Position numbers and translations under genes: made by a program. DNA of 64,000 bases from an uncultured Chloroflexia bacterium (GTDB taxonomy: Bacteria; Chloroflexota; Limnocylindria; Limnocylindrales; CSP1-4), in assembly GCA_963721545.1 (NCBI GenBank), contig CAVRKB010000001.1, forward strand, positions 38,131 through 102,130, in the 5' to 3' direction. Under the pieces are notes generated by a model. It ran no database searches, was not told the DNA's origin, and saw only the letters and a program-made list of their open reading frames with translations. Each line of letters begins with the position of its first letter. Within the stretch, counting starts at the first letter, position 1. Below are positions 34,193 through 52,816 of this stretch, one piece after another.

Positions 34193-34289
34193 GGGAGCGG
34201 TCGGGTCCCGGTGGGTCCCCTGGTCTTCAAAACCAGTGGCGCGGCGCTCGGCGCGGCGCGGTGGGTTCGACTCCCACGCGTTCCCGCCA
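34193..34289 (+). tRNA. selC: tRNA-Sec (anticodon TCA)
   Basis: Anticodon arm CTGGT-CTTCAAA-ACCAG, long variable arm, T arm GTGGG-TTCGACT-CCCAC, acceptor GGGAGCG/CGTTCCC, encoded G-CCA; 97 nt. Confidence 0.95.
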
Positions 34290-50000: not shown

Positions 50001-50866
50001 TCAGCTGCGGCGGACCTCGTAGCCGCCGCCATCGGCGGCCCGGATCTCGTAGCTCGGCTGGTCGTACAGCGCCGGGCCCCGACGGAGGTGGCCGTCGGTC
50101 AGCCGGAAGCGCGAGCCGTGCCATGGACACTCGATGCAGCCGTCGACCACGGAGCCCTGCGCCAGCGGGCCGCCGGCGTGCGCGCACACGGCGTGCATGG
50201 CGTGGACCGTGTCGCCGATCCGGACCAGCAGGATGTCGTTGATCCCGGCCTTTGCCTTCGTCGGCGTCGCCTCGGGCAGACCGGCGAGATCGGTCACGTC
50301 ACCGGTGTCGAGCCGGACCCACTTGGTCCCGGCGCCGCGGAACGCGTGGCGGTTGACCATGTTGCCGAGCAGGTACACGACATCGCCACCGATGAAGGCA
50401 CCCGCCGTGACGATCAGGAAGCCGACGATCGACAGCGCGATCGGGATCGTCCGGTCGGCGGGGTTGCCGGCGCGCAGGAGGAGGGACACGAGGAGGACGA
50501 GCAGGGCGACCACCATCAGCGTCGAATGCGTCGTCGCGCGGACCCGGGCGGTGCCATCGGTGTCGGAGTAGTCCGCCGCGCCGGTCGCGGCCGCGGCGAG
50601 CATGAACAGGATGGTCGCCACGAGGGCGATGTCCGCGGCGGCTGGCTGGTTGAGCAGGTCGAGGACGACGGTCGCGAGCAGCGTCCCGATCGGGATGTCG
50701 GTGACCGCCGCCATGGAGCGGGATGGCCGAGCCACACGCCGTTGAGGAAGTCCTTGAGCGGCCGGATCGGCCGGAACAGCGCGCTCAGCCAGCGATGGTT
50801 GAAGTCCCCCAGCGGTCGGGCCCAGCCATCCTGGGCTGCGACGAGCTGAGCAAGCAGACGACGCAT
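50001..50866 (-). CDS. DUF2231-like membrane domain + Rieske 2Fe-2S protein (frameshift near 50720)
   Basis: FLNGVWLGHP, TDIPIG; Rieske motifs CAHAGG and CPWHGSRF. Confidence 0.88.
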
Positions 50867-50966
50867 GCGGCACCTCCCCGGCGAGTGTATCCACAGACCG
50901 TCCACAACGGCATCAAGTTCGGGGATAACTTTCGACCGATTCGCGACAAGTTCGTGGACAAGCCCG

Positions 50967-50995
50967 TTGTGGTGACCGGGGCCCCACCGTACATT
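50967..50995 (+). promoter_or_regulatory. sigma70-type promoter (-35 TTGTGG, 17 nt, -10 TACATT)
   Basis: TTGTGG at 50967-50972, TACATT at 50990-50995; predicted TSS about 51001. Confidence 0.5.
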
Positions 50996-50999
50996 TCGT

Positions 51000-51220
51000 C
51001 TTGCCCGAAGGGGCAGGTTGAACCGCCAGACCGGTTCGAGGAGTGATCCTCGGGACGGTCCCGGGAACCAGGTTCGCAGGTCGCAAGGCCGGCGAGCGAG
51101 GAACCCGGCGACGACCAGGGACTGCGGACTTGTTCGTAGCCTCAGGACCCGTCGAACGGAGGTCCCCACCAGTTCCTTCGGGCGCTTTCGTGTGCGCGGG
51201 AACCTGCGAGACGGTTGCAA
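51000..51220 (+). ncRNA. Candidate structured non-coding RNA of unknown family
   Basis: Dense hairpins with GAAG, GUGA and GCAA loops and a long-range closing helix; no credible ORF. Confidence 0.5.
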
Positions 51221-51277
51221 GCGATCGGCCGCCGCGGCGCGCATCCGCGGCCCGCGGCGCCCACGCATGATCACGGC

Positions 51278-51469
51278 ATGTGGCGACTCCTGCTCCTGCG
51301 AATCCTCCCGCGACGGCTGCTGCCGTTGCTCGTTCCTGTTCGAGCTGGTCCAGCTGGTCCGCCGGCTTGCGGTCGCGCGACGCCCAGCCGGCTGTTCGAT
51401 TACGACGACCGGATCATCGAGGGCCACGCGACGGCAGTCCCGCCGCGAGCCATCGATCGGGGCGCCTGA
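51278..51469 (+). CDS. Small hypothetical basic/hydrophobic protein (probable indel)
   Basis: MWRLLLLRILPRRLLPLL..; CATGAT element 6 nt upstream of the ATG. Confidence 0.5.
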   Translation: MWRLLLLRILPRRLLPLLVPVRAGPAGPPACGRATPSRLFDYDDRIIEGHATAVPPRAIDRGA

Positions 51470-51534
51470 CCCGCCCGCTCCCCGAGTCGCCGAGCGTCGG
51501 CGCCCGCCGCTGCCGGATCGGCTAGGCTCGGCGC

Positions 51535-52816
51535 GTGCCCACGACCGACCCCACGGATGCCGGTTCGCGCCGCCCCGCCCAGGACTGGCGCATCCTCGTC
51601 GCGGTCTTCTGGGTCACCTCGATGGTCGAGGGTCTCGGCGTCAGCCAGATCTTCGCGCTTGCTGCCGACGTACCTCCGCGAGATGGGCGTGGCCGAGGGT
51701 GACCGCCTCGCCTTCATCGGGCTGTTCAGCGCGCTGATCTTCGTCGTCGGCATGCCGCTCGTGCCGTTGTGGGGCGCGTGGGCCGACAAGTACAGCCGCA
51801 AGGCCGTCATCGTCCGGAGCGCGCTCGTCGAGGCGGTCGTGTTCGCCGCCGTCGCGCTCGCCCGCGAGCCGTGGCAGGTCGCCCTGGCGATGTTGCTGAT
51901 CGGCTTCCAGCTGGGCAACACCGGGATCATGCTGGCCGGCATCCGCGACGTCACCCCGCGCGCCCGCCTGGGCACGACGATCGCGATCTTCGGCGCCTCG
52001 GGCCCGATCGGGTTCGCGGTCGGTCCGGTCCTCGCCGGGGTCCTGATCGACGGGTTCGGCTGGGCGTTGCCGCCGGTCTTCGCCTTCTCGGCGCTGCTGT
52101 CGGTCGGGACCGCGCTGCTCGTCACGTTCGGCTCGAAGGAGGTCCGGCCGGAGGTCGTGCCCGAGGGCCGGATCGTCGACCTCGCCTTCGCCTCGCTCCG
52201 CGGCGTGCTGACCGACGTCCCGACCCGGCGGATCTTCGTGATCTTCGGCATCTCGTTCGTGGCCATCCAGATGAGCCGGCCGTACATCCCGGTCCTGGTC
52301 GAGGGCATCACCGGGGTCGGGCCGGGCCTCGCCTCGGCGATCGGGCTGGTGATGGGCACGGCCGCCCTGGTCGGCGCGCTGGTCTCGCCGCTCGGGGGCG
52401 TGCTGGGCGACCGGATCGGGTTCCGGCCGGTGCTCGTCGCGGCCCTCGCGGGTGCCGGGACCGTCCTCCTGCTCATGCCGCTCGTCGCGTCGGTCGGGGC
52501 CCTGGCGCTGCTGGCCGTCGTCCTCGGTGCCGGGACGGCGACCGTCAGCTCGATGATCTTCGGCCTCCTCGCGACCGAGCTGCCCGCCGAGCGCCGGTCG
52601 GCGGCGCTCAACCTCGTCTACCTGCCGCTCTACGCGGCCGGCATCATCGGGCCCGCCGCCGGCGCCGTCGTGGCCTCGGTGAGCGGCGTCAACGGCCTGT
52701 TCGTCGTCGGCTCGGTGGTCTTCTTCGTCGGCGCGCTGACGATCCTGCGCCGGCGCGACCGGCCGTCGGGCGAGGTGCCGTCGGAGGGCCGGGCGCCCGC
52801 CGCGTCGGAGCTCTGA
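51535..52816 (+). CDS. MFS transporter (DHA1/TetA-like; frameshift near 51660)
   Basis: WGAWADKYSRK, GGVLGDRIGFR, 12 TM. Confidence 0.9.

Follow-up and report, generated by a model that had tools for sequence, protein, structure and literature searches.

The DNA analysed here, a stretch of 64,000 nucleotides referred to as the window, comes from the metagenome-assembled genome (MAG) of an uncultured member of the Limnocylindria (Chloroflexota), an assembly of 3.8 Mb in 13 contigs with a completeness score of 61%. Our analysis revealed that a 640-bp gap between a divergent Rieske/DUF2231 gene and an MFS gene holds a conserved, independently promoted gene for a structured non-coding RNA on the + strand, and that this RNA belongs to a lineage-specific family. 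The reading that we consider likely is that of a stand-alone gene for a trans-acting Limnocylindria RNA of about 190 nt, working by the mechanism proposed below; our best guess as to its nature, made from sequence, would be a protein-binding RNA gated by DnaA. A preliminary description had suggested an unannotated and independent multi-hairpin RNA with its own promoter. All the sequences that it quoted are present at the positions it gave, and its central suggestion is borne out by single-copy conservation, compensatory changes, a non-coding pattern of variation and a conserved promoter.

The extent of the gene follows from its conservation. BLAST searches of 60 related genomes returned a single strong match, with 77-100% identity, in 34 of the 36 that belong to the same genus. 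The conserved block of the alignment spans the start of the divergent gene, the promoter and the RNA up to ...GGGCGCUUUCGUG(UG), and on the 3' side conservation stops abruptly at ~51194 in the genus alignment. The RNA therefore measures about 190 nt (51003 to ~51192) rather than the 220 nt first supposed, of which ~26 nt are unconserved flank. The 5' end probably lies at U51001-G51003, the first base of the helix that clamps the two ends, if transcription starts 7-8 nt after the -10 element. On the larger scale, a 22-mer of the element is present in 79 species-level MAGs, mostly from soil, titled Limnocylindrales, Limnocylindria, Chloroflexia or Chloroflexota. Among 401 genomes of the class, a covariance model of the RNA, R1, retrieved full-length homologues of 194-209 nt from 90, which all fall within the window's own family (25/65 genera).

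The RNA is neither in Rfam nor in the searchable literature, and it is best described as an orphan structured small RNA (sRNA). At the gathering threshold, Rfam 15 found nothing in the whole window other than a tRNA-Sec gene away from the locus (34193-34285; RF01852, 65.5 bits). At the locus itself, the search at E <= 10 gave dauA alone, at 17.3 bits (E = 5.9) against a gathering score of 45, and ARAGORN reported no tRNA or tmRNA, in agreement with the earlier view that none of the common RNA families is represented. Searches of the literature on Limnocylindria non-coding RNA and on Chloroflexi sRNAs with DnaA boxes found nothing relevant. A likeness to SRP helix 8 seen by eye (ACCAGGUUCG..GCAA..AGCGAGC) was rejected, as no SRP model matches at E <= 10 and the would-be AGCA motif is unconserved. 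The possibility of a mimic of the 16S 3' end, or extended Shine-Dalgarno sequence, was likewise set aside: GGAGUGAUCC in P3 is explained by a GNRA-capped GGA/UCC helix, and the sequence is unconserved in other genera. An anti-Shine-Dalgarno loop was considered too, but the C-rich P6 loop UCCUCCCA is confined to the genus.

Folding and covariation define the structure. The + strand from 50995 to 51225 folds at -117.4 kcal/mol, compared with -98.2±5.2 kcal/mol for dinucleotide shuffles (z = -3.66, with 1 of 200 shuffles as good), and the - strand of the same region gives z = -2.54. RNAalifold predicted 59 pairs from an alignment of 28 distinct genus sequences (A1), which was made with MAFFT and was not fitted to the structure, and 97.3% of its cells are paired. 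Double changes occur at 16 of these pairs, compared with 5.4±1.4 in column shuffles, none of which reached 16 in 500 trials, and with 2-6 pairs in a control where the partners were slid by 1-3 columns. Across genera, 33 of the 59 pairs carry double changes, compared with 17.4±2.1 in shuffled and 11-19 in slid controls, in an alignment of 41 sequences that was fitted to R1 and favours the model structure. The single-sequence minimum-energy fold reproduces P1, P3, P4 and P5, and covariation supports P3, P4 and P5. P4 is rich in G·U pairs that fix the strand: the conserved G·U pairs are numerous and would turn into A·C mismatches if the opposite strand were transcribed, and the RNA is therefore encoded on the + strand.

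The remaining elements are more variable. The pairing register of P2 varies between genera (71-88% paired), so that this hairpin is weakly supported. P5 is swapped in some genera for a segment containing GAGAUCACAUCAAGG. P6 is another weak part, with a loop that is C-rich within the genus only. Four of the seven stems proposed in the preliminary description are real and three are not conserved. Its GAGGA-GUGA-UCCUC, GGUC-GCAA-GGCC and CUGCGGA-CUUG-UUCGUAG hairpins correspond to the apices of P3, P4 and P5, respectively, each with covariation. The CUUGCCC-GAAG-GGGCAGG hairpin is present and invariant, but it competes with an end-to-end helix between 51002-14 and 51172-84. GAACCG/CGGUUC does not hold, since its 3' arm becomes GCACC, ACAAC, ACGCA or GGCGG in relatives without any change in the 5' arm; GGACC/GGUCC and GUUCC/GGAAC are not conserved either. 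The long-range helix UCGCAGGU (51074-81)/ACCUGCGA (51202-09) must also be abandoned, as its 3' arm falls outside the conserved block and its 5' arm lies within P4. The true closing helix is that of 51002-14 with 51172-84.

This closing helix, P1, joins both ends of the RNA by 12-13 bp, and 99.2% of its cells are paired (13 pairs, 41 sequences). Its changes are wobble-compatible single substitutions only, with zero double changes. The helix formed with the distant 5' end is followed by CUUUCGUG, an arrangement at which a generic terminator scanner calls no site. The 5' strand can also form a local hairpin, GCCC-GAAG-GGGC, which we infer to be transient and to be displaced later by the clamp.

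The clamp and the tail are not peculiar to this RNA. R1 also matches elements of ~100 nt, up to four per genome and at times in tandem, which share their first ~20 nt (GUUCGUCUUGCCCGAAGGGGC) and last ~20 nt (GUUCCUUCGGGCGUUUUCGUG) with the RNA and differ in the interior. Most of these short paralogues are preceded by (A)AAnTCGTGGATAAg, a TTGnCn -35 element and a TAnnGT -10 element; a GTGGAYAA box stands upstream of the 18 short paralogues of related genomes, and the U-rich tail CUUUCGUG follows every paralogue. The RNA described here bears the same ends, with the 5' (U)UGCCCGAAGGGGC pairing with the 3' GUUCCUUCGGGCG and the U-rich tail after it. Its own genome holds at least five members, namely this RNA and four shorter ones. 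The box lies ~50 nt before the clamp in four of the five, this RNA included, and each of the three short members that were folded forms a panhandle closed by the clamp. Of 24 genomes sampled from the window's family, 22 carry 1-4 copies of the 14-mer RGTTCCTTCGGGCR. Elsewhere in the class, and in the phylum beyond it, the 14-mer is as frequent as a reversed-pattern control, which gives the background level. A match to this 14-mer at C8:110084 (C denotes a contig of this genome) has neither the 5' module nor the tail and was discarded as a chance match. Rfam searches of the paralogue loci returned nothing. Within this family-specific set of sRNAs, which have the box promoter, the clamp and the tail in common, the present RNA is the largest member and the best conserved.

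Some sequence motifs recur inside the members. The GAGAUCACAUCAAGG motif and its variants GAGAUUGCAUCAAGG and GAGAUCGCCUCAAGG take the place of P5 in some orthologues of other genera (among loci L156, L162-L166 and L168-L174) and are also found in short paralogues, the C3 and C12 loci of this genome being among the sites of motifs of this type. In other paralogues, a direct repeat, CAUCUAGUGAUC, flanks a central hairpin on both sides.

The promoter TTGTGG-N17-TACATT named in the preliminary description is present and conserved at a fixed position in 55 loci, with TTGnnn/TAnnnT at a constant distance from the RNA in all homologues. A generic scanner misses it because the -35 element fits the consensus at only three of six positions. 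Upstream of it lie four sites that resemble the DnaA box (TTATCCACA or TTGTCCACA). In the 55 orthologous loci, which represent at least 25 genera, box 4 matches GTGGAYAA perfectly 54 times, its first base lying 49-50 nt ahead of the G of GCCCGAAGG. The spacing is 11 bp between boxes 1 and 2 (50/55 loci), 23 bp between boxes 2 and 3 (43/55) and 33 bp between boxes 3 and 4 (45/55); these are whole helical turns, and the four boxes are therefore on one face of the DNA. Much of the RNA is less well conserved than this array.

The same motif is found where DnaA is expected to act. A tblastn search with a B. subtilis DnaA query located dnaA at C10:118864-120238 (57% identity over 333 aa). Right after it come TGTGGATAA, GGTGGAAAA and TGTGGACAT, several (C/T)GTCCAC sites, an AT-rich stretch and then dnaN, which is the classical layout of an origin. 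The flank (C/T)GTGGAYAA is common to the RNA promoter boxes, this dnaA-dnaN origin region and a site upstream of parA. Near-consensus 9-mers are rare, with 238 in 3.8 Mb, and two or more lie within 300 bp at 13 loci only, which include this RNA, two paralogous sRNA genes, the origin, the region upstream of parA and a predicted transcript at C4:5113. On the most probable reading, DnaA, or a protein of the same specificity, gates the RNA promoter, probably as an activator. Activation is favoured by the position of box 4, which abuts the -35 element, as at some known DnaA-dependent promoters that are activated through such a site. Clustered and phased DnaA boxes are established upstream of sda, dnaA and ywlC in B. 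subtilis and of nrdAB and dnaA in E. coli. The present promoter resembles these in having several consensus boxes, phased by whole turns, beside a sigma-70-type promoter. It differs in that the product is a structured RNA and that the array, conserved across at least 25 genera, reappears upstream of paralogous RNA genes.

An unlikely but still credible alternative is that a dedicated regulator, with a site like that of DnaA, acts on the boxes, or that the array mainly titrates DnaA as a DNA element, as datA and DARS do in E. coli and clusters of DnaA boxes do in B. subtilis. The GTGGAYAA core is short, one paralogue lacks the box, and a phased array of four boxes with two inverted pairs resembles chromosomal DnaA-binding clusters as much as an activator site. 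However, the same motif with its (C/T)GTGGAYAA flank fills the dnaA-dnaN origin and precedes parA, and the tblastn search of this genome found the C10 gene as its only dnaA-like gene. Titration is opposed by the position of box 4, which is fixed relative to the -35 element in 54 of the 55 loci and in most paralogues, as expected of a promoter element.

Other loci with boxes of this type were encountered. The probable replication origin itself lies outside the window, at C10:118380-118870 (L189), as a DnaA-box cluster and AT-rich stretch between dnaA and dnaN. At C4:5113-5330 (L187), three DnaA-like boxes, GTGGATAA, GTGGATGA and GTGGACAA, adjoin a TTCCGG-N17-TACGAT promoter that precedes a predicted two-hairpin transcript of ~110 nt (z = -3.3) with a classical terminator and without the family clamp; an open reading frame of 154 aa without a Pfam match lies downstream. 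A dense run of such boxes, GTGGACAA, GTGGATAG, GTGGACAA, GTGGATGA and GTGGAAAT, at C2:171813-171900 (L188), near a contig end and beside an IS481-like transposase fragment, may be a second origin-like site or one that belongs to a mobile element. A separate repeat (...GAGCGAGCGCACnCAAGGTGCGTGAGCGA...) occurs in at least three copies, at C10:~74290, C10:~265160 and C2:~123270, two of which are just downstream of GTGGAYAA boxes.

The protein partners of known RNA systems were sought in 31 genomes of the genus. We found neither Hfq (PF17209; control genomes positive) nor TROVE/Ro60 (PF05731; 2 of 14 control genomes positive, including Deinococcus radiodurans), and CsrA (PF02599; controls positive) in one genome only. 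A tblastn search of the window's own genome with B. subtilis Hfq gave no match either. The RNA therefore does not pass as a Y RNA, a Csr/Rsm sponge or an Hfq-dependent sRNA, whatever its outward likeness to them. As in the Y RNAs and YrlA/YrlB, the partners of Ro60/Rsr, a long stem pairs the ends around variable modules, there are several paralogues and the 3' tail is U-rich. Unlike them, the RNA is accompanied by no TROVE/Ro60 gene in the 31 genomes and has no tRNA-like module according to ARAGORN and Rfam, and its clamp is a perfect helix, without the bulged motif by which Y RNAs bind Ro. Like Qrr1-5, RsmX/Y/Z, CsrB/C and GlmY/Z, the members are sibling sRNA genes, each with its own promoter, the same upstream protein site and its own terminator. 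They differ from these sets in the counts for CsrA and Hfq given above, in the DnaA-box-like nature of the site and in their non-homologous interiors, and we know of no sRNA set with a shared DnaA box. The nearest parallels may be the orphan RNAs found by comparative genomics, such as the raiA-motif RNA, ROOL and HEARO. Here too, a stand-alone gene of ~200 nt encodes a multi-helix junction with tetraloop arms, the covariation is strong, the distribution is lineage-restricted, and the structure hints at a protein or ligand partner. The present RNA has no sequence or model similarity to them and adds a multi-copy clamp family and a four-site array of DnaA-box-like sequences.

It is improbable that the RNA is the 6S RNA of the lineage or an Ms1-like RNA, that is, an abundant binder of RNA polymerase. 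The idea is attractive on account of the size of ~190 nt, the single copy, the paired ends and the near-universal presence in the genus, and the 6S role appears unfilled, as the canonical 6S RNA (RF00013) was found in none of the 31 genus genomes. This absence is weak evidence, since the same search detected 6S RNA in only 5 of 14 control genomes. Furthermore, the 6S model fails to match the locus at a cut-off as permissive as E <= 10, and covariation supports three or four separate local hairpins around a junction, a branched fold that differs from the rod and central bubble of 6S. Nor does 6S resemble an RNA from a multi-copy family in which the inner modules are interchangeable.

The neighbourhood of the gene raises the question of a role in cis. 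In the genus, the Rieske gene lies upstream at 27 of 30 loci, and the MFS gene lies downstream at 24 of 30, after an unconserved gap of ~60-470 nt. In other genera, the neighbours are a luciferase-like monooxygenase, a DAO oxidoreductase, a DnaB_C-type ATPase, GroEL, another MFS protein, PGA_cap or a PNP_UDP nucleoside phosphorylase, and in several of them the downstream gene is convergent. As neighbours are unrelated between genera and some are convergent, a cis-regulatory role is unlikely. It is thus very improbable that the RNA is a leader or riboswitch of the MFS gene, even though that gene follows on the same strand at most genus loci, the multi-helix junction fold with its closing P1 looks like an aptamer, and the clamp and tail could act as the terminator of an expression platform. 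None of the riboswitch models, guanidine-I ykkC included, matches at the locus at E <= 10; the MFS gene is not nearby at 6 of 30 genus loci and in nearly all other genera; and paralogues with the same ends adjoin unrelated genes. Moreover, the MFS gene carries its own -10 element, TAGGCT (51523-28), 6 nt upstream of its GTG start, a distance so short that a leaderless mRNA is suggested. The differing neighbours and this separate -10 element agree with the earlier proposal that the RNA is independent of the gene downstream.

There is practically no chance that the locus is a small protein-coding gene, such as the 75-aa frame at 51043-51270, or a chance GC-rich structure: open frames do cover the region on both strands and the window is high in GC, which folds well anyway, but the variable columns number 38, 39 and 36 by codon phase, only one of the 16 distinct gap runs has a length divisible by three, and the overlapping frames have no match in Pfam. 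The lack of codon periodicity and the out-of-frame indels therefore rule out a protein, and the fold better than that of dinucleotide shuffles and the compensatory changes far above controls speak against chance.

Based on these observations, we propose the following mechanism for the trans-acting RNA. Transcription would begin at the sigma-70-type promoter, gated by DnaA or a look-alike regulator bound to the four phased boxes, probably as an activator. The nascent 5' strand would be parked in the small GCCC-GAAG-GGGC hairpin while P2-P5, four arms with tetraloop caps, fold. The emerging 3' strand, GUUCCUUCGGGCG, would then capture the 5' strand to form the clamp of 12-13 bp beside CUUUCGUG, which may both end transcription and shield the two RNA ends against nucleases. 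The core is compact, has three or four GNRA/CUUG tetraloops at a junction, and would act in trans by binding a protein or other macromolecule. This last step is suggested by the core itself, as a compact, GNRA-rich, multi-helix fold points to the binding of a protein or other macromolecule rather than to linear antisense pairing.

Several points weigh against this reading. P1 is near-invariant, and covariation therefore neither proves nor disproves it. The local 5' hairpin is as compatible with every natural variant as P1 is: C to U, A to G, G19 to A with C12 to U, and C21 to U, found in orthologues and paralogues, all keep both structures possible. The tail has only 3-4 U residues, too few for the terminator scanner, and both ends of the gene are placed from the promoter spacing, the clamp and the conservation boundary rather than read directly. 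The cross-genus covariation comes from an alignment fitted to its own model. The paralogue at C7:440.3 kb has no box, and another regulator with a DnaA-like site is possible. Since the gene is linked to the MFS and Rieske genes within the genus, there is a small chance that it acts locally in cis. Finally, the searches of the 31 genus genomes found no partner protein. The coordinates of the features are compiled in the table.

Table. Features of the RNA locus in the window, and the short paralogues in the same genome (contig:position).
Feature	Position	Strand or orientation	Remarks
Rieske/DUF2231 membrane-protein gene	start codon 50866-50864	-	divergent to the RNA gene
DnaA-box-like site 1, GTATCCACA	50887-50895	orientation TTATCCACA	8/9 match to TTATCCACA
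DnaA-box-like site 2, CCGTCCACA	50898-50906	same as box 1	weaker here, 6/8 of core
DnaA-box-like site 3, GGGGATAA	50921-50928	inverted relative to boxes 1 and 2	scores 7-8 of 8 in 54/55 loci
DnaA-box-like site 4, GTGGACAA	50954-50961	inverted	just upstream of -35
Promoter	50967-50995	+	-35 TTGTGG (50967-72), 17-nt spacer, -10 TACATT (50990-95)
RNA gene	51003-51192	+	start placed 7-8 nt past -10; end placed from clamp, tail and conservation boundary
P1 5' strand, UGCCCGAAGGGGC	51002-51014	+	pairs with 51172-84; alternative local hairpin GCCC-GAAG-GGGC
P2, short variable hairpin	51016-51024	+	GGU-UGA-ACC here; GNRA-capped in most of genus
P3, hairpin with GUGA (GNRA) tetraloop	51029-51060	+	double-sided changes at 8/12 pairs across genera, 4/12 within genus
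P4, long arm with internal loops	51061-51108	+	GCAA tetraloop (51083-86); double-sided changes at 10/16 pairs across genera
P5, arm with CUUG-type apex (51128-33)	51109-51154	+	double-sided changes at 12/13 pairs across genera, 9/13 within genus
P6, 2-bp mini-hairpin with C-rich loop	51161-51170	+	loop UCCCCA here, UCCUCCCA in most of genus
P1 3' strand, GUUCCUUCGGGCG	51172-51184	+	invariant in genus
U-rich tail, CUUUCGUG	51185-51192	+	presumed termination point; conservation ends a few bases after
MFS transporter gene	GTG start at 51535	+	downstream of the RNA gene
Short paralogue	C3:~25.4 kb	-	
Short paralogue	C7:440.3 kb	+	without box
Short paralogue	C7:545.0 kb	-	
Short paralogue	C12:~143.6 kb	-	

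The surroundings of the gene show some further features. The gap between the RNA and the MFS gene is ~340 nt in the window and is shared only with the closest relative (G021); in other species it measures 60-160 nt. The spacer of ~330 nt (51200-51530) holds a 63-aa frame (MWRLLLLRILPRR...), which is kept in G021 and has no match in Pfam. Around the MFS start, GCTAGGCT (51523-51537) is kept in many relatives. Both flanking genes are frameshifted: in the Rieske/DUF2231 gene (- strand, ~50700-50740), the N-terminus MRRLLAQ...GVWLGHP is out of frame with the rest, and in the MFS gene (+ strand, ~51640-51700), the N-terminus MPTTDP...QIFAL is out of frame with the body. The concurrence of two such frameshifts with the completeness score of this assembly suggests long-read indel errors rather than true pseudogenes. 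In two or three other genera (L156, L166 and L169), the RNA gene lies directly 3' of a same-strand gene for a DnaB_C/KaiC-type ATPase.

To conclude, our work describes a new structured RNA and the sRNA family to which it belongs. To our knowledge, structured RNAs this large and conserved but without known function are rare, and several earlier orphans of this kind turned out to be new riboswitches, ribozymes or protein regulators. The Limnocylindria are an abundant uncultured lineage of soil and freshwater, for which we are aware of no RNA biology on record. It is possible, although doubtful on present sequence evidence, that the boxes are true DnaA sites and that this RNA and its clamp-ended paralogues form a DnaA regulon of structured RNAs. 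If so, the replication initiator would broadcast the status of replication or of the cell cycle through modular RNAs with a common, self-terminating and nuclease-proof clamp, which might also be the handle for one protein, with the ~190-nt RNA as the ancient core of the set. Such an RNA output of DnaA would, as far as we know, be the first described in any bacterium, and it would directly connect the initiation of replication with regulation by RNA. The end clamp, reused among otherwise different sRNAs, would moreover represent a compact design for the control of co-transcriptional folding, termination and end protection.

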